From Candidatus Moraniibacteriota bacterium (GTDB taxonomy: Bacteria; Patescibacteriota; Minisyncoccia; Moranbacterales; GCA-2747515): a DNA stretch of 57,370 nucleotides. Shown here piece after piece: positions 23,796-47,378 of the stretch (its first letter is position 1; every line of letters starts with the position of its first letter). Under the pieces are notes generated by a model that was given only the letters and a program-made list of their open reading frames with translations, did not search any database and had not been told where the DNA came from. Made by a program: the position numbers and the translations under genes. The DNA lies in the NCBI GenBank assembly GCA_023133275.1, contig JAGLWU010000027.1, positions 1 through 57,370 of the forward strand. The letters are read 5' to 3'.

Positions 23796-23848
23796 TGTCA
23801 TTCTGAACGGATTTATTTTTTCGCTAAAAAAATAAAGGCGTGAAGAAT
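23796..23848 (-). repeat. Core repeat module, reverse orientation
   Basis: TGTCATTCTGAACG, AT hairpin TTTATTTTTTTAGCGAAAAAATAAA, then GTGAAGAAT. This is the reverse complement of the core found at 23903, 30867, 47065 and 55032. Confidence 0.7.
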
Positions 23849-23885
23849 TTTGATAAGTTTTTCTACTACTTTATTAATTTAAAAG

Positions 23886-24060: not shown

Positions 24061-24103
24061 AATTTATTTTTTAAAGTTATAATTATTTTTTTAAATTAAA
24101 ATT

Positions 24104-28489: not shown

Positions 28490-28518
28490 TGTAGGGGTTT
28501 GCCAGTGGCAAACCCCTA
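28490..28518. repeat. Perfect 29-nt GC-rich palindrome
   Basis: GTAGGGGTTTGCCA-G-TGGCAAACCCCTAC, with 14-bp perfect arms. Confidence 0.7.
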
Positions 28519-28640
28519 CGAATGTGGTGAATTTTTTTATAATTTTTTACTATTTGTAGGAACTGGTTTTATAATCTATTCCTGCGAGACATTTGGGTTT
28601 CACAGTTTTTTTTGGGGATTATGGAATTAATTTTGTGTTT

Positions 28641-28700
28641 AAAAAGCCCGTGCGGCGAGCCTGTCTGTTGTCTCGTCGACAGACACGGCAGACAGACACA
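28641..28700 (+). repeat. 21-nt motif copy followed by a GACAGAC-rich quasi-palindromic tract
   Basis: AAAAAGCCCGTGCGGCGAGC, then CTGTCTGTTGTCTCGTCGACAGACACGGCAGACAGACAC. Confidence 0.75.
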
Positions 28701-30850: not shown

Positions 30851-31023
30851 TCTATGATTCTCTGTGGGGGGATTCTTCACTGCGTAATTTTGTTTCACAA
30901 AATTACTTCGTTCAGAATGACAGTAAACTTTGAATGACAGAAAATTCAGAATGATAATAAACTTTTAGAATTTTAAACAAGAGGTCATGACCCCTTGTTC
31001 AGAAAAGCCCGTGCGGCGAGCAC
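30851..31023 (+). repeat. Composite intergenic repeat element, copy L2
   Basis: Core at 30867-30922, in which the hairpin reads GTAATTTTG-TTTCA-CAAAATTAC. ATGACAG sub-repeats. Palindrome AACAAGAGGTCATGACCCCTTGTT (30976-30999). Motif GAAAAGCCCGTGCGGCGAGCAC (31002-31023). Confidence 0.75.
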
Positions 31024-31083
31024 AGAAAAATTCTAAAAATTTGTTTGACGGAAAGGTTAAATTAGTGTAATCTGATTAATAGT

Positions 31084-31434
31084 ATGGAAGACTGTATATT
31101 TTGCAAAATTATAGAAAAAGAAGTGTCAGCTAAAATTTATCGAGAAACTGATAATATTTTAGCTTTTGAAGATGCGTTTAAAATTGCACCAGTGCATGTT
31201 TTGATTATTCCTAAAAAACATATTGAGTCAATGAATGACATTCAGGATAATCAGTCGGAAATAATTTCAGAAATGTTTTTGATTGCTCGGGATTTGGCGA
31301 AAGAATTGAAAATTGATGAGTCTGGTTACAAACTTTTGATTCGAACAGGTTTGCACGGTGGTCAAGAAGTGCCACATGTTCATTTGCATTTGATTGGTGG
31401 AGTTCCGTTGTCTGAGGATATTCGACCGATTTAA
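31084..31434 (+). CDS. HIT-family (histidine triad) nucleotide hydrolase
   Basis: N-terminal CIFCKII and C-terminal histidine triad HVHLHLIGG. Confidence 0.8.
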   Translation: MEDCIFCKIIEKEVSAKIYRETDNILAFEDAFKIAPVHVLIIPKKHIESMNDIQDNQSEIISEMFLIARDLAKELKIDESGYKLLIRTGLHGGQEVPHVHLHLIGGVPLSEDIRPI

Positions 31435-31626
31435 TTTTTCGATGAATTATTTTTTTAGTAGAAAGTAAATATACTTGTTTTCCTACGATTAAAATATATT
31501 TTTCGGAATGATATGATTTGGGGGTTTATAATTTAATAGGGAATTAGAATATTTAATTTTTTTAGGTATTTAATATTCCACGTTAAGTGGTTAATTTATA
31601 GATTTTTTTAGAAAGGAGGCGGTATT

Positions 31627-31890
31627 ATGGTTTATGTTTATAAGAAAAATGAAAAAGAAACAACTGATGGTTTGATCAAGCGTTTTACTCGTAAGGTACA
31701 GCAAAGCGGTGTCTTGATGCACGTTCGTAGAAATCGTTTTGATAATGGTACGCAAAGTAAAATTAAGAGACGTGAAGAAGCTTTGTATAAAAAGAACATG
31801 AAAAAGGAAGTTGATAAACTTAAAAAATTGGGTCGTTTCGATAACGATGCTTTCAAGGAACTTAAGAAAAAACTTAAAAAAGAGAAGTAA
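31627..31890 (+). CDS. rpsU: 30S ribosomal protein S21
   Basis: AGGAGG RBS. LIKRFTRKVQQSGVLMHVRRNRFDNGTQSKIKRRE matches the S21 pattern (RRFKR…GVL.E.RRR.F…P…RK). Confidence 0.8.
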   Translation: MVYVYKKNEKETTDGLIKRFTRKVQQSGVLMHVRRNRFDNGTQSKIKRREEALYKKNMKKEVDKLKKLGRFDNDAFKELKKKLKKEK

Positions 31891-31896
31891 AAATGG

Positions 31897-31930
31897 ATGC
31901 GTGATTTTTTTCACGCATTTATTTTTTATA
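31897..31930 (+). terminator. Rho-independent terminator after rpsU
   Basis: Perfect stem ATGCGTGA-TTTTTT-TCACGCAT followed by TTATTTTTT. Confidence 0.65.
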
Positions 31931-31941
31931 ATATTAAATTT

Positions 31942-32394
31942 ATGAAAATTAGCGAAAAAATTAAAAAGGATCTTATACAGGCGATGAAAACTGGTGAGGC
32001 GGAAAAGCGTGATACTTTGCGGATGTTGGACAGTATGATTAAGAATGAAGAAATTGCGAATAATTCTCGTGAGGAGGGTTTGAGCGATGATGATGTTTTG
32101 GTTTTGGTTAAGCGAGCGGTTAAACAGAGGCGGGATAGTATTGAGCAATTTCAGGCTGGTGGTCGAAAGGATTTGGCGGACAAGGAAAAAATGGAGCTGG
32201 ATATTATTAGTGAGTATTTACCAATGCAAATAAGTGATGAGGAATTGGAGAAGATTGTTAAGGAAATTATTGTGGAGGTTGGGGCTGAGTCTAAGGCGGA
32301 TATGGGGAAGGTGATGGGTTTGGTGATTGGTAAGGCTGGTTCGTTGGCTGATGGTGGTAGGGTTAAGGATATGGTGATGAAGAATTTGGGGTAA
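31942..32394 (+). CDS. GatB/YqeY-domain protein
   Basis: MKISEKIKKDLIQAMKTGEAEKRDTLRMLDSMIKNEEI… matches the YqeY family. The longer ORF from 31897 would overlap the rpsU terminator hairpin, so the ATG at 31942 is preferred. Confidence 0.7.
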   Translation: MKISEKIKKDLIQAMKTGEAEKRDTLRMLDSMIKNEEIANNSREEGLSDDDVLVLVKRAVKQRRDSIEQFQAGGRKDLADKEKMELDIISEYLPMQISDEELEKIVKEIIVEVGAESKADMGKVMGLVIGKAGSLADGGRVKDMVMKNLG

Positions 32395-32412
32395 GATTAA
32401 CACTTTAAATTT

Positions 32413-33312
32413 ATGGCAATATTTTCAATAAAAAATAATTTAGCAAAACAGTTAAAGAAAAAAAACTTTCAAAATGAAAAAGAACTTCAAAGTTTTGTCG
32501 AACAAAATATGGAAAATCTTTTTGGAATTAGATTTCTTGCTTCTGAATTTACAACTTCAAAACAACATGGCGGTAGAATCGATTCTTTAGGATTGGATGA
32601 AAATAATTCTCCTGTAATCATTGAATATAAATGGGGCGAAAAAGATAATATTATTAATCAAGGTCTTTTTTATCTTGATTGGCTTGTAGATCACACAGGT
32701 GATTTTCAGCTTTTAGTACAAGATAAACTTGGTGAAAACATTGAGGTTGATTTTGGTTCTCCTCGTGTTTTATTAATTGCTCAAACTTTTAATAAATATG
32801 ATCAATATGCTATTAATAGAATGGCGGAAAATATTGAACTTTGGGGATATTCTCAATATGAAAATGATATTTTTGAATTAAAATTAATTGCTAGCTCGCA
32901 AGCTAAAAAAATTAATAATTCTACAAAACAAATTTCAAAGGTAAAGTATAAGGAATATTCTATTGAAGATCATTTGAAAAATAAAAGCGATAATGTGAAA
33001 GGATTATTTGCAACCCTTCAAGAAAGAATTTTTGCCTTCGAGTCGGAGCAAAAAATTGAAGAGAATTTACGAAAACATTGTATTGTTTATAGAACAAATA
33101 GGAATTTTGTATCTCTGCAACCACAAAATAAATTAGTTAAAATTTTGATTGATGTTAATAAAAAAGAGTTAAATGATCCAAATGATATGATTCGTGATGT
33201 TTTAAGTATTGGAAGATTTGGTACTGGGATTTCTGAAATAAACTTGAAAAGTTTTGATGAGTTAGATTATGTTGTGGGATTAATTGAACAAAGTTATCTA
33301 CAATCTTTTTAA
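32413..33312 (+). CDS. PD-(D/E)xK nuclease-fold protein of unknown function
   Basis: N-terminal block ELQSFVEQNMENLFGIRFLASEF…GRIDSLGLDENNSPVIIEYKWGE gives a D…(D/E)…E-x-K restriction-endonuclease-like signature. The C-terminal ~180 aa have no recognisable motif. Confidence 0.5.
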   Translation: MAIFSIKNNLAKQLKKKNFQNEKELQSFVEQNMENLFGIRFLASEFTTSKQHGGRIDSLGLDENNSPVIIEYKWGEKDNIINQGLFYLDWLVDHTGDFQLLVQDKLGENIEVDFGSPRVLLIAQTFNKYDQYAINRMAENIELWGYSQYENDIFELKLIASSQAKKINNSTKQISKVKYKEYSIEDHLKNKSDNVKGLFATLQERIFAFESEQKIEENLRKHCIVYRTNRNFVSLQPQNKLVKILIDVNKKELNDPNDMIRDVLSIGRFGTGISEINLKSFDELDYVVGLIEQSYLQSF

Positions 33313-33323
33313 TAATAGCTTTC

Positions 33324-33785
33324 ATGAATCTAAAAATAGATCTAACATCTTTCATCAACCAACCCCACGAAAAAAACTATTTTCAAAAAATCGCCGAACA
33401 AACATTTCAAGAAGTCGGTGAAGAAAAATTCAAAAACAAGAATATCGAAATCAGTTTAGCAATTGTTGACGATGAAGAAATCAAAAAACAAAACAATTCA
33501 TTAAGAAACAAAAACACCACAACCGATGTCCTTTCAATTGGAGATTATAGCGACAACAAAAATATCTTCACAGAATTAAAAACAGAAGACAATATTTTTC
33601 TCGGCGAAATAATTCTCTGCTATGAATTTATCAAAAAATCTGCTAAAATAAGTGGGACGACAATTGAATATGAATTGTCTTATGTTTTTTCTCATGGAAT
33701 TTTACATTTACTAGGTTACAAACATGGAGAAGAAATGTTTTCAATTCAAGAAAAAGTCAGTCATAATAGATTATTAGACATTTAG
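33324..33785 (+). CDS. ybeY: Endoribonuclease YbeY (rRNA maturation factor)
   Basis: C-terminal metal-binding motif SHGILHLLGYKH (HGxLHLxGYDH). Confidence 0.85.
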   Translation: MNLKIDLTSFINQPHEKNYFQKIAEQTFQEVGEEKFKNKNIEISLAIVDDEEIKKQNNSLRNKNTTTDVLSIGDYSDNKNIFTELKTEDNIFLGEIILCYEFIKKSAKISGTTIEYELSYVFSHGILHLLGYKHGEEMFSIQEKVSHNRLLDI

Positions 33786-33811
33786 ATTTTTAGAGCGTAA
33801 ACTTTTAAAAT

Positions 33812-34180
33812 ATGAAAAAAAAGATTATTGGTTTACAAAATGTGGAACATGCGTGGCAGGGAATAAAACTTGCTTTTAAATATGAACGAAATTTTAAAAT
33901 AGAAGTTATTTGTGCCGTTGTCGTAATTTTGATACTATTTTTTTTGAAAGGCTCGATGCAAGATTTTTTAGTTATTTTAGCGGTAATATTTACGATTTTA
34001 ATAACAGAATTAATTAATACTTCCATAGAAAGATTAGTTGACATGATCCAACCGAATGAACATCCTCATGCAAAAATAGTTAAAGATATGTCAGCAGGAT
34101 TTGTTTTATTAGCAGTAATTTTTTCAGTTTTTATTGGGGTAGTTATTTTTTATCCGCTTATAGTTTCAAAATTTCTCTAA
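33812..34180 (+). CDS. dgkA: Diacylglycerol kinase / undecaprenol kinase (DgkA family)
   Basis: Three TM helices. ELINTSIERLVD…AKIVKDMSAGFV matches the DgkA E.lN.AIE..VD and KD.gSAAV motifs. Adjacent to ybeY as in Firmicutes. Confidence 0.7.
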   Translation: MKKKIIGLQNVEHAWQGIKLAFKYERNFKIEVICAVVVILILFFLKGSMQDFLVILAVIFTILITELINTSIERLVDMIQPNEHPHAKIVKDMSAGFVLLAVIFSVFIGVVIFYPLIVSKFL

Positions 34181-34207
34181 ATATTTTTTTATTAAATTAA
34201 GTATAAG

Positions 34208-34216
34208 TGTTATAAT
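34208..34216 (+). promoter_or_regulatory. Extended -10 element upstream of ftsA
   Basis: TG-t-TATAAT at 34208-34216. Confidence 0.35.
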
Positions 34217-34273
34217 GTAAACTGTAAGATTTTTTATTATAAATTTTTTTAGATTTTCAAATATTTTTAGTAT

Positions 34274-35536
34274 ATGAGAGATAATATTATTACTAGTATA
34301 GATTTAGGTTCTTCGCTTGTACGTTGTGTTATTGCTGATGCGTCTTCTGAAGTAGATGGTCAAATTAGGATTTTAGGTGTGGGAGCGGTTGAGTCTGATG
34401 GTATGCGTCGGGGAGCAGTTGTGGATATTGTGGATGCAGCTGAGGCTATTTCGGTAGCAGTGGAGAAAGCTGAAATGATGAGTAACGTGCAAGTTAAAAG
34501 TGCCATTGTTAGTATTGGTGGTGCAGGTCTAACTATTGAAAGCACAAAAGGTGTTGTGGCGATAGGAAGAGCTGACGGTGAAGTTACGGAAGATGATGTA
34601 ACTAGAGTCATTAACGCAGCACAATCTATTGTAGTTCCAGCAAATAAAGAAATTATTCATGTGATTCCTCGGTCTTTTCGTTTAGATGATCAGAAAGATA
34701 TTAACGATCCGATTGGTTTACAGGGTGTACGACTTGAGGTTGATGCAGTGGTTGTGGAAGCACCTGGAAATCATGTAAAAAATTTAACTCATGCTATGGA
34801 ACGGGCAGATATTACTGTTGAGGATTTTATTATTGAGCCGTTAGCAGCAGCTGAGTCAGTTCTAACAAAGAAACAAAAAGAATTAGGTGTGGTGTTAGTT
34901 AATTTAGGAGCTAGTACAACTTCATTGGCAGTTTTTGAAGAGGGTGAATTAGTTTATACAGCAATTGTTCCAATCGGTTCAGATTTTATTACAAATGATA
35001 TTGCGATTGGTTTGAGAACATCTATTGATACAGCAGAGAGAGTAAAGTTTGAATATGGAAGTGCTATTTTAGATCAAGCTAGTCAACGTAGTAAAATTGA
35101 TTTGTCTCAAATTGATCCACGTGAAGATGGTGAAATTCCACACAGTCATGTCATTGAAATTATTGAAGCTCGGTTGGAAGAGATATTTGAATTAGTGCAA
35201 AAAGAATTGAGAAGTATTGGCAAAGATCAATTATTACCAGCTGGAGCAATTTTAACAGGTGGTGGCGTTAATCTTCCTAGGGTAGCAGAATTTGCCAAAA
35301 GAAAATTGAGACTGCCTGTTCAAATTGGTCGACCAGAAAATCTTTTAGGAGTGATGGATAAAGTCGATGATTCTTCTTATGCTACAGTAGTTGGACTTAT
35401 TCTTTGGGCGATGGACGATATACATTATTCTGGTGGTAGAAATAAATTTACTTCAGGAATATTAGGAGCTGTTTCAGGAGGTGCTAAGAGTTCAGTAAAA
35501 AATGTCGGTTCTTGGCTGGGTAAATTTTTGCCTTAG
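34274..35536 (+). CDS. ftsA: Cell division protein FtsA
   Basis: Actin-fold N-terminus ITSIDLGSSLVRCVIAD, ATP-binding loops, and a C-terminal amphipathic tail. Immediately upstream of ftsZ. Confidence 0.85.
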   Translation: MRDNIITSIDLGSSLVRCVIADASSEVDGQIRILGVGAVESDGMRRGAVVDIVDAAEAISVAVEKAEMMSNVQVKSAIVSIGGAGLTIESTKGVVAIGRADGEVTEDDVTRVINAAQSIVVPANKEIIHVIPRSFRLDDQKDINDPIGLQGVRLEVDAVVVEAPGNHVKNLTHAMERADITVEDFIIEPLAAAESVLTKKQKELGVVLVNLGASTTSLAVFEEGELVYTAIVPIGSDFITNDIAIGLRTSIDTAERVKFEYGSAILDQASQRSKIDLSQIDPREDGEIPHSHVIEIIEARLEEIFELVQKELRSIGKDQLLPAGAILTGGGVNLPRVAEFAKRKLRLPVQIGRPENLLGVMDKVDDSSYATVVGLILWAMDDIHYSGGRNKFTSGILGAVSGGAKSSVKNVGSWLGKFLP

Positions 35537-35705
35537 TTTATTAATTCAATTTGACATTAAGGCTGGGCTCGTGTTAAAGTGAATTACTAGATAGATTGGT
35601 ATTTTTGAATTATTTTAATTAATATTTTGCTAAATATTCGCTATAATCAGGTATTTTTTTTATCACTTGATTTGATAGGGAATTTGGTAAATTTTTTATA
35701 AAATT

Positions 35706-37058: not shown

Positions 37059-37120
37059 GTTTTGTGTAAATTTGTTTTCTTAATATTTAAAACTCTCTTG
37101 ATTTTTTTAGGGGAGTTTTT

Positions 37121-40100
37121 TTGTTTATAGATTTCGCAGTGGTTTTGTGGTATTATTTAGTTATGGAAAGAAATAAACTTAAAAAGTTTTTGAAAGTATT
37201 GGGTTATCAACCTCTTGATGGAGAGGTTGGTTTTTGGTTTAAAAAATATAATAATCATAATGATTATCAAATTATAGTTAAGGTTAATGATAATTTAAGA
37301 AATTCTAAAATTGATTGGGGAAATAAAATAAAAATTGGTAGAAAAAGTACCTCTAATTTTTCGCAAAATGAAACTTTTGTTGTTTTTGAATGTGTAAATA
37401 GATTATTAGAAAATGGAAATAAACCAGAAAGTTTAGTTTTAGAAAAAGAATGGAAGCTTGGTCATAAAGGAAAGGGATTTTTAGATATTCAGGTTTTAGA
37501 TGAAAGTGGAAAGAGCTTTTTGATGATTGAATGTAAGACTTTTGGTAAGGAGTACGATAAAGCTAAGAATGATACTGAAAAAGATGGAGGTCAGTTATTT
37601 GGATATTTCATTCAAGAAAGAAATACTAAATATATTTGTTTATATTCTTCTATTTTTGAGAATAATAAAATAAAATCTTTTAGTGATATTATAGTTGTTA
37701 ATAAAGAAATAAGAGGTTCTGAAAATAGTCGAGACGCTTTTGATTCTTGGCATCCTCAGATTTGGGAATCTAGGGGTGTGTTTGCTGTTGATGGAGTAAA
37801 ATTTAGAGGAATTGTTAAAGGGAATAAAGAAAATGATTTAGTGGACTTAACTGAAAAAGATGGAGGTAATATTTATAATCGTTTTGCTGAAATATTAAGA
37901 AAAAATGTTGTTTCTGATAAAACAAATGCCTTCAATAAAATTTTTAATTTATTTCTTTGTAAAATCGTTGATGAATTTGAGACAAGAAAAGGAAATGAAT
38001 ATGAATTTCAGTGGAAAGATGGAGAGAGTAATGAAGATGTTTTAATGCGTTTAAATGATTTGTATAAAAGAGGAATGTCCAGATATTTAGATTTAAAGAT
38101 TGAGGCTGTGTCAGAAAAGGAATTTGATGAGGCACTTGAAAACTTTGAATACAATAAATCAAAAATTGAAAAATTATTTATTCGACAAAAATTATATTCA
38201 GGAAATGAATTTGCATTTAAAGAGGTTTTTGATAAAGAAAGTTTTAATGAAAATTGTTTTGTAGTTAGGGAGGTTGTTAAGCTTCTAGAAAAATATAGAA
38301 TAAAATACACAACCAAACAGCAATTTTTAGGAGATTTTTTTGAACGACTTTTGAACACGGGAATTAAACAAGAGTCAGGTCAGTATTTTACACCCACTCC
38401 AATTGCATCTTTTATTTGTAAATCTATACCTTTTAAGAAAATTATTGAGGATAAAAATAAAAGAGAAAAACCTTATTTTTTGCCTTATATTATAGATTAT
38501 GCTTCAGGAGCTGGACATTTTCTTACTGAGGCTATGGAAGAAGTTGATCATCATATTAAAGACATTGATGGAGATTGGGTTTTATGTGGAGAAAAACATA
38601 AAAAAGAATTTCTTAAAAATAAAGATAATTTTGATTGGGCGAGTGAATATATTTATGGTATTGAAAAAGATTATAGATTAGCAAAAACAACAAAAATCAG
38701 CACTTTTTTAAATGGTGATGGAGATGCTAATGTTATCAGGGGAGATGGTCTTGATAGTTTTGAGAAAAGTGATGTTTATAAAGGAAAGTTAAAAGAATTT
38801 AATTTTGAAAATGAAAATAGAAAATTTGATATTTTAGTTGCAAACCCACCTTATTCTGTTGATGGGTTTAAAACAACATTAAGAGATGGTAAAGATTCTT
38901 TTGAGCTTTATCCTTATCTTACAGATCAGAGTAGTGAAATTGAGTGTCTTTTCATTGAAAGGGCTAAACAGTTACTCACAGAGGGAGGTATTGCAGGTAT
39001 TATTCTGCCATCTAGCATTTTAACCAATACGAGAATTTACTCTAAGACTAGGGAGATCATTTTTAAGTATTTTAATATTATAGGTATTACGGAATTAGGA
39101 CGTAATACTTTTATGAAGACACCTACAACTACGGTTGTTTTATTCTTAAAAAGAAAAAATAATAAAGATTTTGATGGGATTTTTAAAAAAGTGAAGCAAA
39201 GTTTTGATAATCAAAAAGACATTACTATAAATGGAATTGAAAAAGCTTACTCAAAATATTTGTCTTATGTTTGGCGTGATGAAGATAGTCAAGTTAATTT
39301 TGCAGATTATAAAACTTTAATTAATAAAAATCCAAATAAAAAAATTAAAAATCATGAGATTTTTCAAGAGTATGAAAAAAAGATAAAAGCTAAAGATAAG
39401 CAAGAGAAGTGGCAAAAGATTCATGATTTAGAAAAAGAAAAAATAACTTATTTTTTGAATGTTTATAATCAAAAAGTTGTTTTAATAAAAACTGGTGAGA
39501 AAAAAGAAGAGAAGAAATTTTTGGGTTACGAGTTTTCAGATAGACGAGGAGGTGAAGGAATTCATTCACTTCAAAGAGGTGAGGACATTAGTAAATGCAC
39601 TCAGCTTTTTGATGCTAAAAATCTTTACAATTCAGAAAAGGCTAGTACTTATATTTTGGAGGCTCTTGAGGGAAAAAAAGAAAGAAAAATTCCAGAAAAA
39701 TTAAAGGAAAATATTAGTCGTGTTGATTTGATTGATATGATGACTTTTGATCGTATTGATTTTGAGAAAAGTATTAATTTGAATGTTAAAAAAAAGATTA
39801 AAATTAAGAGTAAATGGGATTTTGTAAAATTAGAAACTGTTCTTTTTGAACAGCCTAAATCTAAAATAAAAGTAAAAACAGTCAATGACACAGAAAATGG
39901 AATTTATAATTTTTTTACCAGCGGTGAATCTATTTTAAATTTTAATAAATTTTTAGTAGATGGGAAAAATATATATCTTTCTACGGGAGGCAATGCCATT
40001 ATTAAATTTTTTGATGGAAAAGCAAGTTATTCTACAGATACTTTTGTTATACAAAGTAAAAACGAAAATTTAATAAAAACAAAATTAATATTTTATTTTA

Positions 40101-40837
40101 TTGAATATATAATTAAAGATATTGATAAATTTTATTTTAAAGGACAGGGATTAAGACATTTGCAAAAATCTGATTTTAGAGAAATAAAAATTCCTCTCCC
40201 ACCAATAGAAATTCAACAAAAAATTGTGGATGTGATTGAGTCTTTGGAGAAAAAAGAGAATGAGATAAAAAGGTCAATTAAAGTTATGAGGCAAGAAATT
40301 AGTAAAATTATTAATAATATTTCAGGGGAAGAAAAAACTTTAGAGTCTATTTGTGAAGATATTTTTGCTGGAGGAGATAAGCCAGAAAAATTTTCATATG
40401 AAAAAACAGAGGAATTAAATATTCCAATTTATGCTAATGCAGTAAAAAACAATGGATTATATGGCTATACAAATGTTTATAGAGTCAATAAGCCTTCTGT
40501 GACAGTTTCGGCAAGAGGTACAATTGGTTTTCCTATTGCAAGAAATGAAAAATTTTATCCTATAGTAAGATTAATTGTTATTATTTCTGGCGAACGATTA
40601 AAAAATAAATATTTGGAAATCGTTTTAAAAAATGCAAACATAGTTTCGAGTGGGACAAATATTCCACAATTAACGGTTCCAATGGTTCAGAATATGAAAG
40701 TTCCTTTTTTGCCTTTTTCTAAACAACAAAAAATAGTTTCTCAAATTGAAAAGATTGAAAATAAAATTTCGAAATTAGAAAAAGAATTGGAAGAAGTTCC
40801 AAAGAAAAAAGAAAAAATATTGAAAAAATATTTGTAA
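37121..40837 (+). CDS. Single-polypeptide restriction-modification enzyme (Type IIB/IIG-like). N-terminal PD-ExK nuclease, gamma-class N6-adenine methyltransferase, and two HsdS-like target-recognition domains.
   Basis: Nuclease motif LDIQVLDESGKSFLMIECK. MTase motif I (X) GQYFTPTPIASFI and motif IV LVANPPYS. The C-terminal half has two TRD-like repeats separated by coiled-coil conserved regions (…LKIPLPPIEIQQKIV…, …VPFLPFSKQQKIV…). No helicase/ATPase. Start is TTG at 37121 with a GGGGAG RBS; the alternative is ATG at 37163. Confidence 0.75.
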   Translation: MFIDFAVVLWYYLVMERNKLKKFLKVLGYQPLDGEVGFWFKKYNNHNDYQIIVKVNDNLRNSKIDWGNKIKIGRKSTSNFSQNETFVVFECVNRLLENGNKPESLVLEKEWKLGHKGKGFLDIQVLDESGKSFLMIECKTFGKEYDKAKNDTEKDGGQLFGYFIQERNTKYICLYSSIFENNKIKSFSDIIVVNKEIRGSENSRDAFDSWHPQIWESRGVFAVDGVKFRGIVKGNKENDLVDLTEKDGGNIYNRFAEILRKNVVSDKTNAFNKIFNLFLCKIVDEFETRKGNEYEFQWKDGESNEDVLMRLNDLYKRGMSRYLDLKIEAVSEKEFDEALENFEYNKSKIEKLFIRQKLYSGNEFAFKEVFDKESFNENCFVVREVVKLLEKYRIKYTTKQQFLGDFFERLLNTGIKQESGQYFTPTPIASFICKSIPFKKIIEDKNKREKPYFLPYIIDYASGAGHFLTEAMEEVDHHIKDIDGDWVLCGEKHKKEFLKNKDNFDWASEYIYGIEKDYRLAKTTKISTFLNGDGDANVIRGDGLDSFEKSDVYKGKLKEFNFENENRKFDILVANPPYSVDGFKTTLRDGKDSFELYPYLTDQSSEIECLFIERAKQLLTEGGIAGIILPSSILTNTRIYSKTREIIFKYFNIIGITELGRNTFMKTPTTTVVLFLKRKNNKDFDGIFKKVKQSFDNQKDITINGIEKAYSKYLSYVWRDEDSQVNFADYKTLINKNPNKKIKNHEIFQEYEKKIKAKDKQEKWQKIHDLEKEKITYFLNVYNQKVVLIKTGEKKEEKKFLGYEFSDRRGGEGIHSLQRGEDISKCTQLFDAKNLYNSEKASTYILEALEGKKERKIPEKLKENISRVDLIDMMTFDRIDFEKSINLNVKKKIKIKSKWDFVKLETVLFEQPKSKIKVKTVNDTENGIYNFFTSGESILNFNKFLVDGKNIYLSTGGNAIIKFFDGKASYSTDTFVIQSKNENLIKTKLIFYFIEYIIKDIDKFYFKGQGLRHLQKSDFREIKIPLPPIEIQQKIVDVIESLEKKENEIKRSIKVMRQEISKIINNISGEEKTLESICEDIFAGGDKPEKFSYEKTEELNIPIYANAVKNNGLYGYTNVYRVNKPSVTVSARGTIGFPIARNEKFYPIVRLIVIISGERLKNKYLEIVLKNANIVSSGTNIPQLTVPMVQNMKVPFLPFSKQQKIVSQIEKIENKISKLEKELEEVPKKKEKILKKYL

Positions 40838-40840
40838 AAA

Positions 40841-40866
40841 ATACGGAGTCAATCCGTATTTTTTAT
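40841..40866. terminator. Bidirectional terminator between the RM gene and recG
   Basis: Perfect stem ATACGGA-GTCAA-TCCGTAT followed by TTTTTT. Confidence 0.65.
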
Positions 40867-42950: not shown

Positions 42951-43034
42951 TTGTGAATGTTATTTTTTGTTATATTTATTATACACTGGAATAGATTTTT
43001 AGATAGGTAGATGAGTAGATTTTTAGATTTGTAG

Positions 43035-43055
43035 AGACATTGCATTGCAATGTCT
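43035..43055. promoter_or_regulatory. Perfect 21-nt palindrome in the recG/cupin divergent promoter region (candidate operator)
   Basis: AGACATTGCA-T-TGCAATGTCT. Flanked upstream by two direct repeats TAGATTTTTAGAT (42992-43004 and 43016-43028). Confidence 0.45.
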
Positions 43056-43143
43056 TGAGGATGTTTGAAAATTTGATAGTGTTCAGTAGGTTTTTATTGT
43101 ATAATATTTAATATGGGAATTAATAGAATTAATTAAAATTAAT

Positions 43144-43497
43144 ATGAAAATTCAAAAAAAATCATTTAATTCAGTACTGTTAGAGGGAGCTCACGATGGA
43201 GCAGGTGGAAGACGACTTTATGTTGATCAAGGTGAGATTAATAATATTGATTGGCAAGCTATGACCTACGGTTATTTGCCTCCAAAAGGCGTTTTTGATT
43301 GGCATCATCATGATGATATTGAAGAGACAATGTTAGTTATAAAAGGAACGGGGGTAGTTAGCGATGAAGATGGTAACTACGAATATTCTGAGGGAGATTT
43401 GTTTATATTTCCAGCAAATACTAAACACAAAATAGAAAACCCTAGTGATCAACAGCATGAATATGTATTTGTAAGGGTTGCAACTAGGGAATTATAA
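43144..43497 (+). CDS. Cupin-domain protein
   Basis: Two-His motif HHHDDIEETMLVIKGTG and a second motif PANTKHKIEN. Confidence 0.55.
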   Translation: MKIQKKSFNSVLLEGAHDGAGGRRLYVDQGEINNIDWQAMTYGYLPPKGVFDWHHHDDIEETMLVIKGTGVVSDEDGNYEYSEGDLFIFPANTKHKIENPSDQQHEYVFVRVATREL

Positions 43498-43537
43498 ATG
43501 ATAATTGAGGTTTTAGTTAAAAATAATATTTTAAGTT

Positions 43538-43559
43538 TAAAAGTCCGTGCGGCTAGCAC
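43538..43559 (+). repeat. 21-nt GC-rich intergenic motif (variant)
   Basis: AAAAGTCCGTGCGGCTAGCAC. Confidence 0.75.
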
Positions 43560-43644
43560 TTTTTAAATTATTATGAAACGTAAAAAATAAAGTTTAACAT
43601 AATGATTATCATTATTTTGATAGATTAAATTTTTTTAAAATGCA

Positions 43645-43675
43645 AAAAGCCTCGGACATTGCCGAGACTTTTGTG
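43645..43675. terminator. Bidirectional terminator
   Basis: CTCGG-ACATTG-CCGAG stem with an A-run upstream and a T-run downstream. Confidence 0.5.
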
Positions 43676-43724
43676 TTAAAAGAACGAAGGTGTTTTTTTG
43701 TTTTTGCTTAAACTTAATTCAAGA

Positions 43725-44417
43725 TTATAAACCAGATACGTAATTTGTGTAAACATTCAAGTTTTGAAGTTGAGTGTCGTTCAAATTTTTAGCTGATTGG
43801 ATAGCTGTATCGATTGATTCGTTTGAGAAACTAACTGAAGTTCCTGGAGCGATTGTTCTGTTTGAAATATCTTTTTGCAAAGAATCTTCAATATATATTT
43901 TATGAGCAGGTGTTAATCCTTCTACATTATTTTCTGAAATATATTGAGCAGTAGCTTTACGAGCCAAATGAGTTAAACTATCTCCATAATTTGCGGTTAC
44001 TGTTATTTCGTCATCTTTTTGTTGAGAATTATTGTTTTTAATCTCAGTTTTAGTAGATGGTCCTTTGCCTCTGTCGGTATTCTCAGTAGAGTTTTCAGTT
44101 GGAGATATTGTTGTTTGTGTCTGATCATTTTCTGAAGTTCTGTTTGTTGTTGAATCAGGTTTAACTGATTCTGTATCGTTTGCTTTATTTCTTGAATCAG
44201 CATCTTTCGCTTCATTCACTGGTATTTCATCGATAACTTCTTCTTGTTGAGCCTTGTCATCTACGATTGCTCCTTCATTACTTGATTTTTTTGAATAAGA
44301 ATAAATCAAGAAAAATAGTATTAAAAGAGTGATCATAATGATAATTATAGCTTGCAAACTATCTTGTATCCAATTTGTGAATCTTTTGCCTTTACTTTCT
44401 TCCATAAAATCTTTCAC
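43725..44417 (-). CDS. Hypothetical membrane-anchored protein with a low-complexity S/T/N/D-rich ectodomain
   Basis: N-terminal TM AIIIIMITLLILFFLIYSY, then a compositionally biased region. Confidence 0.45.
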   Translation of the reverse strand: MKDFMEESKGKRFTNWIQDSLQAIIIIMITLLILFFLIYSYSKKSSNEGAIVDDKAQQEEVIDEIPVNEAKDADSRNKANDTESVKPDSTTNRTSENDQTQTTISPTENSTENTDRGKGPSTKTEIKNNNSQQKDDEITVTANYGDSLTHLARKATAQYISENNVEGLTPAHKIYIEDSLQKDISNRTIAPGTSVSFSNESIDTAIQSAKNLNDTQLQNLNVYTNYVSGL

Positions 44418-44627
44418 CTTCCTTTCTAGTTCTAAATTGTTAAAAATGGCTTACGTTGAAGCTATCAGTTTTCATAAAGAAAACAAACTACAGTCATTGT
44501 ACAGCGTTATCACAAGGAAATCAATATAGACAAAACAATGTTTTTCTGGTTTAATTATTTTATGGACTTTTTAAAATTTTACTAATAAGTTTATTAAATT
44601 CCTTTAATTTTTTACAAAAAATATTTC

Positions 44628-45116
44628 ATGAATTTTATTCTTATTTTAATTTTAGTATTAACAATAATTATTTTTATAATTGGACTAATTGGAATTATTA
44701 ATCCTATCATCCCTAGTTTACCAGTTATTTGGTTGGGTATTTTTATTTTCGTATATTTTGAAAATTTTCAATCGATCACTGTTCAGTTTGTAATTATCAC
44801 GGCGATTATTGCTGTGCTGGGAATGTTACTAGATTTTGTGTCTAATATTTTAGGTGTTAAATTTTTTGGATCGAGTTGGTATGGCGTGATGGGTTCTGTT
44901 GTAGGATGTATCGTTGGAATTATTATTTTTCAAATTATTGGAATGATTATTGGAACTTTTGTTGGAGCATTTTTGGGTGAATATTTTTTGCACAAAGATG
45001 GAAAGAAATCGTTGAAAGCAGGTTTAGGTTCTTTTCTCGGTTTTATTTTTGGCATTGCTACGAAAATTGTTTTATCTCTGGTGATGATTGGATGGTTTTT
45101 TATTTTGTTATTTTAA
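44628..45116 (+). CDS. Small polytopic membrane protein (DUF456-like)
   Basis: IGLIGIINPIIPSLPVIWLGIFIF resembles the DUF456 Gly/Pro motif. Four TM helices. Confidence 0.45.
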   Translation: MNFILILILVLTIIIFIIGLIGIINPIIPSLPVIWLGIFIFVYFENFQSITVQFVIITAIIAVLGMLLDFVSNILGVKFFGSSWYGVMGSVVGCIVGIIIFQIIGMIIGTFVGAFLGEYFLHKDGKKSLKAGLGSFLGFIFGIATKIVLSLVMIGWFFILLF

Positions 45117-45296
45117 GAAAAGTTTTGAATTAATAAGAATTTTGTAGGGGTAGTACCTTGTGCCTATCCATACGATAAATTTTAAATTTTGTGATAGGGT
45201 GAGCGCAATTATTTTCATAAAACTATTTTTTAAGTTTAAAATTTTCTTGTTAATAAAAAATAACCTTTATATTTTTTTGTTTAAAATATTTTTGTA

Positions 45297-45325
45297 TTGC
45301 GTATAAACTTTTTTTTGTTTATAAT
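45297..45325 (+). promoter_or_regulatory. Putative sigma70 promoter for the basic protein gene
   Basis: TTGCGT (45297-45302), 17-nt spacer, TATAAT (45320-45325). Confidence 0.5.
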
Positions 45326-45411
45326 AGAATTACAAAAACAAAAATAATTTTAAAAATTTAAATATTTTTTTTGTGTAATAAATTTATATAGAAAGGTAGG
45401 TGAAAATAATT

Positions 45412-45648
45412 ATGGCAGCACGCAAAAAAGTGGCTCGCAAAAAAACAACTCGTAAGAAGGTGGCTAAAAAGAAAGTAGCTAAGAAAAAAGCAGTACGTAA
45501 AACTACGCGTAAAAAAGTTGTTAAAAAAGCAAAGAAAAAAGTAGCGAGAAAGAAGACGGCTCGTAAAGCAACAAAAAAAACAGCACGTAAAAAGACGGCT
45601 AAAAGAAAAGTTGCAAAGAAAAAAGTGGTTCGTCGAAAAAGAAGATAG
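45412..45648 (+). CDS. Histone H1-like, highly basic repeat protein (nucleoid-associated candidate)
   Basis: 78 aa, more than 50% Lys/Arg, tandem KK(V/T)ARKKT(T/A)RKK repeats like Hc1/AlgP/BpH1 tails. RBS AGGTGA. The ORF track's GTG start at 45400 is less likely. Confidence 0.55.
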   Translation: MAARKKVARKKTTRKKVAKKKVAKKKAVRKTTRKKVVKKAKKKVARKKTARKATKKTARKKTAKRKVAKKKVVRRKRR

Positions 45649-45682
45649 TTTCTTACTCTATAGAAAATAAAAACAAAAATAA

Positions 45683-45720
45683 AACAAGCTTTGGTAATGC
45701 CCAGAGCTTGTTTTGTTTTT
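45683..45720 (+). terminator. Rho-independent terminator
   Basis: AACAAGCTTTGG / CCAGAGCTTGTT stem followed by TTTGTTTTT. Confidence 0.65.
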
Positions 45721-46107
45721 ATGAAAATTATTTTGAATAGATGATTTGTTTATAGAATTGAAAAAGTTTTTTGAGAATTTTTAAATTTGTAGATATTGTT
45801 GAAAATTTTGTTAAAAAAACACAATCATTTAATGGGTAAAGTAGGTAGCTGTAATGTTAATAATATGAAGAAATTTTTACGAAAAATTGATTTGCCGATT
45901 TATTTTTTTGAATAGGTTTTATTGAGATAAGGTTTTTCTGTTGGAATTTATTGGGAAAAGTGGTAATTATTTTAATGCTTGTAAAAAAATATTTCCATCC
46001 AGCTGATATTTAATTAAAATTTTAAACAAATTATTTTCTTTTTTTATAAAAAACAAAATAATTTTTTAGAGTTGACGCCCAATTTAATTGGGTGATGATA
46101 TGAGTTG

Positions 46108-46155
46108 AACAAGGGGTCATGACCCCTTGTTCAAAAAAGCCCGTGTGGCGAGCAC
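46108..46155 (+). repeat. 24-nt perfect palindrome plus 21-nt motif
   Basis: AACAAGGGGTCATGACCCCTTGTT (46108-46131) immediately followed by CAAAAAAGCCCGTGTGGCGAGCAC (46132-46155). Confidence 0.8.
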
Positions 46156-46255
46156 AAAATTAGTTTAAAAATAAGTCAAAAAAATTCTTAAAATTTTACA
46201 ACAAACTTGCATTATGTTATAATAAAATGGAAGTTAAAAATAAATATAAAACTTT

Positions 46256-46567
46256 ATGGAATGTCAAAATAATGAAAAATCAACGATCATTAGCACTTTG
46301 TCTGAGATGGTTGGATCAATGTTAAAGGTTGTGCAGACAGGTATTGTAGAGCGAATAGAAAAAGTTGCTAGTCGTATTGTTCGGGATGTGGTGGGAGTAA
46401 TTATTTTTGCTTTACTGGGCTTGGTGGGATTCACTTTTTTTCTGGTTGGAGCGTCAATTTGGTTGGGTGATTTTTCAGGATTAGGATTAGGATTTGGGTT
46501 AATGTCGACAGGTGGAGTAGTTTTTATTCTTGCTTTATTGATAGGGTTAATTCAAAGAATTAAATAA
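46256..46567 (+). CDS. Hypothetical small membrane protein (2 TM)
   Basis: Two Gly-rich hydrophobic helices. Lies 26 bp upstream of the ElaB-like gene. Confidence 0.4.
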   Translation: MECQNNEKSTIISTLSEMVGSMLKVVQTGIVERIEKVASRIVRDVVGVIIFALLGLVGFTFFLVGASIWLGDFSGLGLGFGLMSTGGVVFILALLIGLIQRIK

Positions 46568-46593
46568 AATTTTAATTAAATTAATATAAAAAT

Positions 46594-46872
46594 ATGGGAA
46601 ATAAATGTGATAATGAAGAAGGCATGAAAAAGCATTATTGTAATGCTAGGGAAAAAGCTGAAGAAATTAAAGAGATAACTTCTGAAAAGATGGAAAAAGT
46701 AAAAGAAATGACTTCTGAAAAAGTTGAGGATGTTAAAGAGAAAGCTCAAGAAGTGAGAGAAAATACTCAAGATTATATCAAAAAAAATCCTGAAAAATCT
46801 GTTAGTATTGCGGCTGGAGTTGGTGCGGCTGTTGGTGTTGCTTTTGCGTTTTTGTTTAGGCGTAGGAAATAG
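46594..46872 (+). CDS. ElaB/YqjD/DUF883-family tail-anchored protein
   Basis: Charged coiled-coil N-terminus. C-terminus NPEKSVSIAAGVGAAVGVAFAFLFRRRK matches the DUF883 C-terminal anchor (ENPW.SVGIAAGVG…LL.RR). Confidence 0.5.
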   Translation: MGNKCDNEEGMKKHYCNAREKAEEIKEITSEKMEKVKEMTSEKVEDVKEKAQEVRENTQDYIKKNPEKSVSIAAGVGAAVGVAFAFLFRRRK

Positions 46873-46896
46873 ATTGAACTTGAATTTTATAAAATG

Positions 46897-46928
46897 AAAC
46901 CTTTGCTTTTGTGGAGGTTTTTTTTATT
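46897..46928 (+). terminator. Putative terminator
   Basis: AAACCT…AGGTTT stem followed by TTTTTTT. Confidence 0.45.
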
Positions 46929-47046
46929 GCTTTTAAATTATTTTAAGATTCATTTTTTGTAGATTTTTTTATATTTCTTGCATGTTGTAGTGCAAGGTCT
47001 TTACATTGAAAAATAAAATAATTTTTTTAGGAGGATAAGATTGGGA

Positions 47047-47284
47047 GTTTTATATTTTTCTTTGGGGGATTCTTCGCTACATAAATTTTTTTACAAAAAA
47101 TTTATTACGTTCAGAATGACAGATAAACTTTTGTAGTGAACGGTTTCAAACCGTTCACTACTGAAATTACCACGTTATCTTTGGGTTGAAAATTTTCAAC
47201 CCCTACATTGCAATAACAGTAATTTTTTAGAATTTCAACAAGGGGTCATGACTCCTTGTTCAGAAAAGCCCGTGCGGCGAGCAC
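47047..47284 (+). repeat. Composite intergenic repeat element, copy L3 (most elaborate: core, three perfect palindromes, terminal motif)
   Basis: Core 47065-47121 with hairpin ATAAATTTTTTTACAAAAAATTTAT. Palindromes TAGTGAACGGTTTCAAACCGTTCACTA (47134-47160), GGGTTGAAAATTTTCAACCC (47183-47202) and AACAAGGGGTCATGACTCCTTGTT (47237-47260). Motif at 47261-47284. Confidence 0.8.
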
Positions 47285-47378
47285 AATTATTTTTTTGATA
47301 CTTTTTAATATCTTTGAGAAATGATATAGTGGATGTAGTGAACTTAAAATGTGTTTTTTTAAATTTTAAAATAAAATT

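Follow-up and report, generated by a model that had tools for sequence, protein, structure and literature searches.

A candidate REP-like palindrome family without a GTAG foot recurs across distant bacterial phyla, beside and within genes for RAYT-like Y1/HUH proteins

REPs are among the commonest repeats of bacteria and are regarded as species-specific partners of RAYTs with vertical inheritance. How REPs move is still unproven, and we know of no direct demonstration of transposition for any of them. In the REP/REPIN-RAYT systems of E. coli and Pseudomonas, short hairpin palindromes (20-40 bp) are present in many copies, mostly intergenic and occasionally inside genes, and flank a single-copy, host-embedded Y1/HUH gene. 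The BIMEs of enterobacteria are intergenic mosaics of REP-type palindromes and conserved non-palindromic motifs with a variable number of modules, and in IS200/IS605 elements a Y1 HUH enzyme recognises subterminal hairpins on single-stranded DNA. One study describes REPIN-RAYT systems as specific to lineages and inherited for the most part vertically (bioRxiv 10.1101/2022.05.22.493013). The REPtrons of TnpA_Y1 subclass 2.4 occur in Bacteroidetes and scattered phyla (Quentin et al. 2018, PMC6006769), with the protein motifs NH[IFV]H, WQ and YIxNNP and with REPs that carry a GT[AG]G foot (PMC6006769). Intragenic REPs, including in DNA polymerase I, have been described (Di Nocera et al. 2013, PMC3733652), as have the RPE-1 elements, longer palindromic insertions restricted to Rickettsia (PMC3733652).

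Here we compare with these systems a palindrome from the window, the whole stretch of 57,370 nucleotides of a Candidatus Moraniibacteriota contig. A search allowing up to three mismatches returned exactly three matches to AACAAGGGGTCATGACCCCTTGTT, all of them singletons, against a chance expectation of zero (no match in 100 dinucleotide-preserving shuffles). Copy 1 (30976-30999, AACAAGAGGTCATGACCCCTTGTT) and copy 3 (47237-47260, AACAAGGGGTCATGACTCCTTGTT) each differ from AACAAGGGGTCATGACCCCTTGTT at one position by an uncompensated transition, G7>A in the former, which sets A7 opposite C18 (A.C), and C17>T in the latter, which sets T17 opposite G8 (G.T). The earlier note had described a 24-nt perfect palindrome in three copies, one perfect and two with a single uncompensated mismatch. 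We confirmed this description except for its extent, since copy 2 (TTGAACAAGGGGTCATGACCCCTTGTTCAA) is a perfect palindrome of 30 nt (46105-46134) around the 24-nt core at 46108-46131; none of the three copies is assigned a strand. Folded as single-stranded DNA, the mutated copies reached only -4.9 and -6.4 kcal/mol, compared with -13.4 kcal/mol (z -5.9) for copy 2. Transitions of the C>T type are eroding two of the window copies, which fits a neutral or selfish insert better than a selected structure. No Rfam 15 covariance model matched the window at its gathering score, and a scan at E<=1 found nothing meaningful around 30976 and 47237, the region of 46108 having been scanned at gathering score only.

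Each copy is followed by TCA(G/A)A and then, on the + strand, by a 21-nt motif, AAAGCCCGTG(C/T)GGCGAGCACA, which lies at 31004-31024 (AAAGCCCGTGCGGCGAGCACA) beside copy 1, at 46136-46156 with one mismatch beside copy 2 and at 47265-47285 beside copy 3. A core module, GGGGATTCTTC...ACGTTCAGAATGACAG, stands upstream of 30976 and 47237 and is absent upstream of 46108; in both arrangements the earlier note was correct. Copy 1 lies in the spacer of a host composite repeat (30868-31024, + strand) whose 5' core (GGGGATTCTTCACT and CGTTCAGAATGACAG with a hairpin between them) is followed by a variable spacer and by the 21-nt motif as the 3' end, a layout also present in Moraniibacteriota HOU_bin.0114. 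This repeat is bordered by a GT2 gene (30126-30842) on one side and a HIT gene (31084-31434) on the other. A second composite repeat (47065-47285, + strand) holds three guest palindromes in its spacer, namely a GTAG...CTAC palindrome at 47133-47161, GGGTTGAAAATTTTCAACCC(CTAC) at 47183-47206 and, as the last of them, copy 3, an ACAAGG palindrome. An ORF (46256-46567) starts 125 nt downstream of copy 2. The three copies of the window occupy, as guests, the variable spacer of a composite repeat specific to the lineage. The likeness to BIME-like mosaics that had been proposed is reasonable in that a REP-type palindrome is nested in an intergenic mosaic repeat whose number of modules differs from copy to copy, but only as an analogy: nothing enterobacterial is present, the sequences, motif set, host and module grammar differ from those of BIMEs, and the palindromes here are guests within a repeat whose 5' and 3' ends are fixed.

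All three copies meet the 21-nt motif at the same junction, so that they may have arisen by duplication of a single composite, or else by three insertions at one preferred site. On the former account, which we regard as possible although unlikely, the copies were not inserted singly; the composite repeat, or the palindrome together with the 21-nt motif, multiplies, and the palindrome is a passenger that was acquired once. The junction TTGT-TCA(G/A)A-AAAGCCCG is common to the three window copies and to two of the six copies in HOU_bin.0114, and an upstream TTTTAGAATTT segment is shared, together with the core, by 30976, 47237 and loci L036 and L045. Four perfect copies in HOU_bin.0114, however, lie away from any 21-nt motif (two of them within coding genes), the composite copies at 24041 and 55144 have a different 18-nt segment in place of the palindrome, and in other phyla the palindrome is solitary. 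The passenger account bears only on the origin of the window copies, not on the nature of the palindrome.

Across a genome collection of 596 Gb, the palindrome was found as a 22-mer 67 times, at 64 loci in about 11 unrelated lineages, compared with approximately 0.1 occurrences expected by chance (an arithmetic estimate). The lineages include KSB1, Bacteroidota, Moranbacteria, Gracilibacteria, Spirochaetes and Ignavibacteria; one KSB1 single-cell genome and Vicingaceae KA17 have 18 copies each, HOU_bin.0114 has six, and further copies occur in, among others, rumen Bacteroidia. The flanks are unrelated between loci, and two copies within 0.5 kb of each other were seen only at L008, L020 and L026. 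Together with the 21-nt motif, which occurs ten times in the window and seven times there without the palindrome, these results bear out the proposal that the palindrome is a separable module; because each part is found apart from the other, the palindrome is not confined to one fixed longer element. That the palindrome and the 21-nt motif also form an independent short unit is weakly suggested by one copy, that at 46108, but the parts are otherwise found apart. Many of the matches come from MAGs and one source is an MDA-amplified single cell, as might be expected of an adapter or linker palindrome or an MDA chimera junction. Such a sequencing or assembly artefact is nevertheless scarcely conceivable, as the matches come from independent projects and assemblers, the variants include mutated and compensated forms, and the palindrome stands in frame at a homologous position in conserved proteins. 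It is also reproduced in three assemblies of the window population, copy 1 being identical in the two others.

The family comprises 16 distinct variants with a common 20-nt core, in which 96.9% of cells are paired. Three of the eight pairs show changes on both sides (15 cells), a level of covariation reached by none of 500 shuffles. The consensus is a perfect palindrome of fixed length, (A)ACAAGGG-NN-CATG-NN-CCCTTGT(T/C), predicted to fold on single-stranded DNA into a hairpin with a stem of 9-13 bp and a CATG loop. No GT[AG]G or CGTC foot was found on the palindrome, which is flanked by TGA/TCA in KSB1 and Moranbacteria or by A...C in Bacteroidota. It differs from the REPs of REP/REPIN-RAYT systems in lacking this foot, in being a perfect palindrome of zero spacer, whereas those REPs form an imperfect stem that carries a bulge, in occurring as singletons rather than as inverted doublets (REPINs), orientation being undefinable for a perfect palindrome, and in having an identical sequence in many phyla.

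A duplex binding site with two-fold symmetry would be expected to show symmetric covariation just as well, and the earlier note had suggested that the TCATGA centre could be recognised by a dimeric protein. An operator or nucleoid-protein site would accord with the perfect dyad symmetry, and the covariation is compatible with altered half-site specificity. The proposed centre, however, is not conserved beyond CATG: in the variants GTCATGAC, GACATGTC, GAGCATGCTC and GGCATGCC the neighbouring bases change in a compensated manner. Moreover, the copies are exact rather than degenerate and have no gene context in common, some lying in frame inside unrelated coding genes, and the phyla that carry the palindrome have no specific regulator in common. 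We therefore consider a regulator's site very improbable. We interpret the family as a REP-type selfish element because it is linked to a RAYT-like (HUH/Y1) transposase, an enzyme of single-stranded DNA with which it travels rather than with a regulon.

Most copies (62/70) are intergenic or overlap only short unannotated ORFs, and an intergenic copy often lies just 3' of a stop codon or just 5' of a start codon. This placement, the stable hairpin predicted for the palindrome and the action reported for REPs (PMC3733652) are what would be expected if the palindrome were kept as an RNA hairpin for stabilising the transcripts of the gene upstream or for terminating them. By contrast, no T-run follows any of the three window copies, and the stem-weakening mutations in the window favour neither strand, since they weaken the stem on opposite strands (A.C versus G.T). 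In-frame copies within ORFs also speak against such a function, and a generic hairpin would need no identical sequence across phyla. We find it distinctly improbable that the palindrome is maintained in this way; an RNA-level role would at best be secondary and exapted.

In-frame copies were identified in polA (L064), where the palindrome occupies an interdomain linker, in a GT2 glycosyltransferase gene (L062) and in type IIG restriction-modification (RM) enzymes (L007, L052). They are always read in one of two open frames, TRGHDPL or QGVMTPC. Insertion in frame at tolerated loops and linkers, including in DNA polymerase I, resembles that of RPEs and intragenic REPs, whereas the element described here adds only 7-10 residues and is pan-phylum. 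The RM genes provide filled and empty sites. The empty nuclease loop reads ADGAIL-KGEDA-IAVIELK (L088, L093 and many others), and the loop is filled by the palindrome or its variants in L007, L052, L089, L092, P0040, P0068 and P0077. In a comparison of only six loci, the filled loop was accompanied by a Y1 domain in the same gene in four of four cases, and the empty loop occurred without a Y1 domain in two of two. Between L007 and L052, whose proteins are 55% identical, the 22 nt are identical and flanking synonymous positions differ. The loop is a hot spot at which presence/absence polymorphism tracks the Y1 domain. We flag the fusion of an HUH domain to a type IIG restriction enzyme as unreported.

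The proteins associated with the palindrome form a clade that matches Pfam Y1_Tnp, and nearly all genes of this clade have members of the palindrome family beside them or within them. At L026, a Y1 ORF lies between two perfect copies; at L078/L079, a Y1 gene is preceded by two family palindromes, with a third at its 3' end, and these two cases recall the flanked Y1/HUH gene of REP/REPIN-RAYT systems. Five further independent Y1 genes contain one palindrome each inside the ORF. Several stand-alone Y1 genes have an internal palindrome and none flanking, and the member from Fluviicola taffensis has only a degenerate one. Across the homologues the motifs are DH[MVAIL]H, W[TA](Q/R)KF and Y[IVT]xxNRxKH, with the HUH histidines, the W, the Tyr and the NxxKH motif invariant, and the distance from HUH to W ranges from 50 to 136 aa. 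With these invariant residues, and with genes that are single-copy and syntenic in a housekeeping neighbourhood, the enzymes look active and domesticated. No Y1 gene of the clade was found in the Moranbacteria DNA covered, about 125 kb made up of the window, the 10 kb upstream of it and six loci of HOU_bin.0114, so the link to the enzyme rests on genomes other than the window's.

The clade scores 46-56 bits with the NCBIfam model REP_Tyr_transpos (cut-off 80 bits) and 25-34 bits with the IS200 model NF033573 (cut-off 55 bits), and is closer to RAYT/TnpA_REP than to IS200 transposases by model score. It differs from RAYTs in its motifs DHxH, WTQKF and YIxNNRxKH and in scoring below the NCBIfam RAYT cut-off. 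The palindromes might instead be the ends or footprints of autonomous IS200-like insertion sequences, arranged palindrome-Y1-palindrome, rather than REPs moved in trans by a domesticated RAYT. The same-orientation copies that bracket the Y1 ORF at L026, the Pfam assignment ("Transposase IS200 like") and a cross-phylum spread similar to the patchy distribution of IS200 (PMC6006769) would agree with this explanation. Yet the Y1 gene at L026 is truncated at an internal palindrome, and solitary palindromes outnumber Y1 genes by about 20 to 1 in KA17 and KSB1. The hairpin-recognising enzymes of IS200/IS605 belong to the same Pfam family, but the Y1 genes found here are single-copy, have housekeeping genes as neighbours and keep their synteny between relatives; no tnpB adjoins them, and no multi-copy transposase gene lies bracketed by left and right ends. 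An origin as IS200-like ends is, in our assessment, quite improbable.

Collectively, these findings suggest that the palindrome is probably a REP-like hairpin element without a GTAG tag, mobilised by a RAYT-like Y1/HUH enzyme. By analogy with E. coli TnpA_REP and IS608 TnpA, the enzyme would bind the palindrome hairpin on single-stranded DNA and would cut and rejoin it, thereby copying the palindrome to new sites. Three features set the family apart, namely the lack of a GTAG tag, a sequence identical across distant phyla including CPR and KSB1, and sites in a conserved protein loop that are either cleanly filled or cleanly empty. Because of these differences, it offers a simple substrate (a perfect hairpin of 22 nt), a defined enzyme clade and natural junctions with which REP mobilisation could be tested. 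Streamlined CPR genomes tolerate several selfish palindrome families, some of them inside essential genes such as polA.

A broader interpretation is that a single, ultra-conserved family of REP-type palindromes reached at least eight phylum-level lineages, tiny CPR genomes included, by horizontal spread. It would have travelled with a RAYT-like HUH nuclease whose reading frame contains the enzyme's own substrate and which is often embedded as a domain of a type IIG RM enzyme. We put this forward tentatively, as a rather unlikely scenario. If it were true, REP/RAYT systems would not always be lineage-bound, vertically inherited partners, and the RM-HUH fusion would be a promiscuous vehicle, or a new kind of DNA-marking or defence enzyme, seeding palindromes in new hosts.

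Among the described groups, TnpA_Y1 subclass 2.4 shares a particular feature with the clade (PMC6006769): palindrome-encoded peptides occur in 29 of 36 homologues, nearly all of them between the HUH motif and the WTQKF/Tyr motifs. When compared by described motifs, the two differ in that the clade has DH[MVA]H, W[TA]QKF and YIxNNRxKH and palindromes without GTAG. Separately from the family described here, GTAG...CTAC palindromes are present in the window at 28491 and 47133, and these are of the kind termed "double foot" in PMC6006769.

A pattern search allowing up to three mismatches returned exactly three matches to AACAAGGGGTCATGACCCCTTGTT in the window, at 30976-30999 (one mismatch), 46108-46131 (perfect, and lying within a perfect 30-nt palindrome at 46105-46134) and 47237-47260 (one mismatch), and none in 100 dinucleotide-preserving shuffles of the window. 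Each copy is followed on its 3' side by TCA(G/A)A and then by the 21-nt motif AAAGCCCGTG(C/T)GGCGAGCACA; a core module lies upstream of the copies at 30976 and 47237 and is absent upstream of the copy at 46108. The earlier note had described the positions, mismatches, 21-nt neighbour and missing core in just this way, and the search confirmed it. Both mismatches are transitions, one leaving A.C and the other G.T, and the predicted ssDNA hairpin weakens from -13.4 kcal/mol in the perfect copy to -4.9 and -6.4 in the mismatched copies. The window, from a Candidatus Moranbacteria (CPR) MAG, has a G+C content of 30%, and no presence/absence polymorphism at copy 30976 was observed among three assemblies of the window population. 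A reading of the palindrome as a transcription terminator was rejected because no T-run follows it. Rfam returned no family at gathering score across the whole window, and the one match from a relaxed scan around 30976 and 47237, to an AT-rich mitochondrial rRNA, was spurious.

A scan of one genome per species (596 Gb) with ACAAGRGGTCATGACYCCTTGT yielded 67 copies in 64 loci, against a chance expectation of about 0.1. The hosts, with phylum labels as given in the database records, are a KSB1 single-cell genome and the Vicingaceae MAG KA17 (18 copies each), a related Flavobacteriales MAG (6), the Moraniibacteriota MAG HOU_bin.0114 (6), 'bacterium STD1_102' (5), rumen Bacteroidia MAGs (7), and, with one copy each, Gracilibacteria, Spirochaetes, Ignavibacteria, Draconibacterium, a second Vicingaceae MAG and two unclassified MAGs. 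The G+C content of the loci lies between 29 and 53%, and the flanking DNA is unrelated between copies. Among the 64 loci, the 21-nt motif adjoins the palindrome only at two, both from Moraniibacteriota (L036 and L045), and HOU_bin.0114 carries four other palindrome copies without it. The proposal that the palindrome is a separable module is therefore supported: the genome-collection scan did not find it confined to one fixed longer element, because in other genomes its flanks are unrelated and rarely include the 21-nt motif. Its immediate flanks form sub-families by lineage, with KSB1 and Moranbacteria extending the dyad (TGA-ACAAGG...CCTTGT-TCA) and Bacteroidota and STD1_102 showing an asymmetric A...C. 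A full-text literature search for the sequences turned up nothing but an unrelated human transcription-factor paper.

A family search in all fetched loci with CAA[GT]GG-N8-CC[AC]TTG recovered 69 copies of the major form, 12 of the variant CAATGGGACATGTCCCATTG, six each of CAAGGGAGCATGCTCCCTTG and CAAGGGGACATGTCCCCTTG, and further variants including CAATGGGGCATGCCCCATTG, CAATGGGTTGCAACCCATTG and a few others, all with a common 20-nt core. Across the 16 distinct sequences, 96.9% of cells are paired and both-sided changes occur at three of the eight pairs (15 cells); the observed covariation was reached by none of 500 shuffles, and slid controls fell to 34-64% paired. Such symmetric covariation is compatible alike with a hairpin and with a two-fold symmetric duplex site. 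The suggestion that the TCATGA centre is a dimeric-protein site found no support: TCATGA is not a conserved recognition hexamer, because constancy is limited to the outer ACAAGGG/CCCTTGT foot and, in most variants, to the CATG at the centre.

Palindrome copies are mostly intergenic, and four lie in frame within long ORFs. Two of these are in HOU_bin.0114, in DNA polymerase I (polA, locus L064; in the linker that joins the 5' nuclease to the exonuclease-like domain) and in a family-2 glycosyltransferase (GT2, L062); the other two, in Vicingaceae KA17 (L007) and Draconibacterium (L052), are in the N-terminal nuclease domain of an MmeI/Eco57I-type IIG restriction-modification (RM) enzyme. The in-frame copies are read exclusively as TRGHDPL or QGVMTPC, the two frames that are open; the remaining frame contains TGA. 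The L007 and L052 RM proteins share 55% identity, and the 22 nt of the palindrome are identical between them while neighbouring synonymous positions differ. Among RM homologues, the palindrome is cleanly present or absent in a loop flanked by the D and ExK residues, which is empty in many (ADGAIL-KGEDA-IAVIELK) and filled by the palindrome or a variant in others (for example TRGHDPLSTPF, LTGEHAPPS and LTKEHTPLL), reaching about 50 residues of repeated palindrome-encoded peptide in one protein (P0077). At the DNA level, the loop measures 33 nt in filled alleles versus 12 nt in the empty allele. The palindrome behaves like inserted DNA, and the perfect in-frame copies in polA and GT2 argue for recent activity in the HOU_bin.0114 lineage. 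Earlier work has described intragenic REPs, among them some in repair genes and in DNA polymerase I (PMC3733652).

The L007 and L052 RM enzymes also contain an in-frame Pfam Y1_Tnp domain ('Transposase IS200 like') that splits the Eco57I methylase domain into two halves, with variant palindromes within and just 3' of the Y1 domain. Fusions of this kind to an MmeI/Eco57I-type IIG enzyme were found at L007 (121-2727, minus strand), L052 (385-4074, plus strand), L089 (3575-6217) and L092 (6164-7279). In the fusions, the Y1 domain sits between an EFPxIF segment and the GGFDVVIGNPPY motif, and the segment with which stand-alone Y1 members end (...CTKEHAFRTEY) precedes GGFD. A fusion of an HUH domain with a type IIG RM enzyme was not found in PMC6006769 or PMC3733652. 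The hot spot in the RM loop is filled in all four RM genes with a Y1 domain and empty in both of those without one (L088 and L093); it tracks the Y1 enzyme, a pattern that is consistent across six loci only. Genes of the RM family that hosts the hot spot (proteins P0037-P0156; L088, L089, L092 and L093) are usually called as a short N-terminal ORF (200-370 aa) and a separate ORF for the rest, also where the contig is of megabase size, and they are split or decaying in filled and empty alleles alike. The window itself encodes a 1238-aa fused restriction enzyme with N6_Mtase, Eco57I and two Methylase_S domains (37121-40837); considered as a homologue of the Y1-RM enzymes, it proved unrelated and lacks a Y1 domain.

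Through a tblastn search of the Y1 domain against all palindrome loci, we identified one additional relative, a 133-aa ORF at L026 that has a perfect palindrome on each side and ends inside the downstream copy. Used as a database query, the domain retrieved 36 proteins, and a profile retrieved 182; they are mostly stand-alone PF01797 proteins of 177-237 aa, labelled 'REP element-mobilizing transposase RayT' by JGI; organism names, where given, were Fluviicola, Polaribacter, Bacteroidales, Flavobacteriales, Bacteroidota and Delongbacteria. The family palindrome lies in or beside the Y1 gene in all independent genomic contexts fetched. At L078, a 12.6-kb contig carrying the gene for P0005, two palindromes are upstream of the gene, one is at its 3' end and two are elsewhere. 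Palindrome-encoded peptides (for example TRGHVPL, TREHAPL, NKGACSLV and NKGINPLV) occur in 29 of the 36 homologues, nearly all between the HUH and WTQKF/Tyr motifs, which are spaced 50 to 136 residues apart. The clade shows no variation in the HUH histidines, in the W and Tyr residues or in an NxxKH motif. The Y1 genes are single copy with housekeeping neighbours, and two related genomes share the order TPR protein, Y1, lipoate-protein ligase. NCBIfam models scored REP_Tyr_transpos (46-56 bits) above IS200 (25-34 bits), both under the curated cut-offs, and a PDB sequence search with one member gave no match at E<=1.

Within Moranbacteria, tblastn and the clade HMM found no Y1 gene in about 125 kb, comprising the window, the 10 kb upstream (L085) and six HOU_bin.0114 loci. 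The cultured clade member Fluviicola taffensis has an internal palindrome in degenerate form only and no perfect copy within 10 kb on either side, and offers no ready model of active copies. Viral contigs contained neither the palindrome nor relatives of the Y1 clade, and a phage vector is therefore not supported.

The palindrome and the Y1 clade together show the REP/RAYT pattern, in which, by analogy with E. coli TnpA_REP and IS608, the Y1 enzyme would mobilise the palindrome. Their behaviour resembles that of TnpA_Y1 subclass 2.4, which is distributed among Cyanobacteria, Bacteroidetes and scattered phyla and carries the motifs NH[IFV]H, WQ and YIxNNP (Quentin et al. 2018, PMC6006769). By contrast with that subclass, the palindrome here has no GTAG or CGTC tag, and the clade motifs are DHxH, W[TA]QKF and YIxNNRxKH. 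REPIN-RAYT systems are described as lineage-specific and mostly vertically inherited (bioRxiv 10.1101/2022.05.22.493013), whereas here one 22-mer is common to distant phyla. Because tag and motifs differ and the 22-mer spans distant phyla, we file the palindrome as a new variant that works like a REP and is not a member of a described REP family. On balance, it is probably a REP-like palindrome that lacks the GTAG tag, occurs across phyla and is linked to a RAYT-like HUH clade, with three partly decaying copies here in a Moranbacteria composite repeat.

The window contains ten copies of the 21-nt motif, of which seven lack the palindrome; all ten are intergenic, nine are on the plus strand, and eight lie 43-106 nt 5' of a same-strand start codon. 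Four belong to composite repeats at 23903-24061, 30868-31024, 47065-47285 (with three palindromes in its spacer) and 55032-55164, and solo motifs are located at 10473, 19742, 26598 (minus strand), 28643 and 43540; a partial core lies inverted at 23795-23850. The composite begins with a 5' core of GGGGATTCTTCACT, a hairpin with compensated stem changes and ACGTTCAGAATGACAG, and ends in the 21-nt motif AAAGCCCGTGCGGCGAGCAC. Ten elements of the same architecture are present in 48 kb of HOU_bin.0114, sharing with the four in the window a 5' module (hairpin plus GTTCAGAATGACAG), a spacer and the 3' 21-nt motif. Spacer length varies between about 25 nt and well over 100 nt, and the spacer holds the ACAAGG palindrome in some copies and GTAG-type palindromes in others; in the elements at 24041 and 55144, an unrelated segment of 18 nt takes the palindrome's place. 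The modular shuffling proposed earlier is thus real; the most fitting reading is of a host repeat with REP-type palindromes nested inside it, and the likeness to BIME mosaics holds in kind. The five Moranbacteria copies next to the 21-nt motif all have one junction in common, which may reflect either a preferred insertion site or duplication of a composite that already bore the palindrome. The composite itself is a candidate MITE, RNA or protein site. A metagenome scan with the 21-nt motif gave three matches only, all chance, in GC-rich coding sequence.

The minus strand of the 21-nt motif (31004-31026, 46136-46156 and 47265-47286) gives a short hairpin, GCTCG-CCGCA-CGGGC, which includes a T.G wobble and runs on into TTTT(C/T)TGAAC. 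A terminator scan flagged 2 and 6 such sites versus expectations of 0.2 and 0.6; the same pairing has a C.A mismatch on the plus strand. The motif therefore looks terminator-like on the minus strand and could stop antisense transcription. The composite spacers at 30917-30960 and 23950-24010 each contain three spaced copies of (A/T)GAATGA(C/T)A(G/A), about 13-20 nt from start to start, which resemble iterated binding sites.

Palindromes with canonical tags are also present in the window. Those at 28491-28519 and 47133-47161 (GTAGGGGTTTGCCAgTGGCAAACCCCTAC and GTAGTGAACGGTTTcAAACCGTTCACTAC, GTAG...CTAC) are of the 'double foot' type of PMC6006769, and others are found at 47183-47206 (GGGTTGAAAATTTTCAACCC+CTAC) and 43030-43055 (GTAG+AGACATTGCAtTGCAATGTCT); this CPR contig therefore carries several REP families. 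A further, CTGTCTGCCGACAGGCAGGC-like palindrome at 28664-28700 adjoins the 21-nt motif at 28643; its family, seen also at L003, L018, L045 and L064, takes the place of the composite 5' hairpin in several HOU_bin.0114 copies and is present in a Gracilibacteria MAG too. Elsewhere in the window, the ORF at 9357-10466 contains three tandem 102-nt repeats (9921-10278, 66-75% identity), which are probably ordinary protein repeats because the orthologue in L085 has Pfam TPR-repeat matches.

Outside Moranbacteria, the palindrome takes part in other arrangements. Two of these are seen among L056 (2130-2260), L058 (5320-5450), L023/L027, L016 and L034: in Vicingaceae and Flavobacteriales it is central in a larger inverted-repeat element, …TTAATTAGAG…GTAAAGTCCA-palindrome-…TTACAGACAG…TTAATTAG, and at several other loci it lies just 10-25 nt 5' of a start codon (…CCTTGTCAAAAAAATAAAAATG). 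In rumen Bacteroidia (L015, L028, L046, L048, L053, L055), it and a different palindrome, ACAATGGGGCTTGCCCCATTGT, share the tail CCCTACCGGA(CGA), a design of variable palindrome and conserved tail that parallels the palindrome and 21-nt motif of the window.
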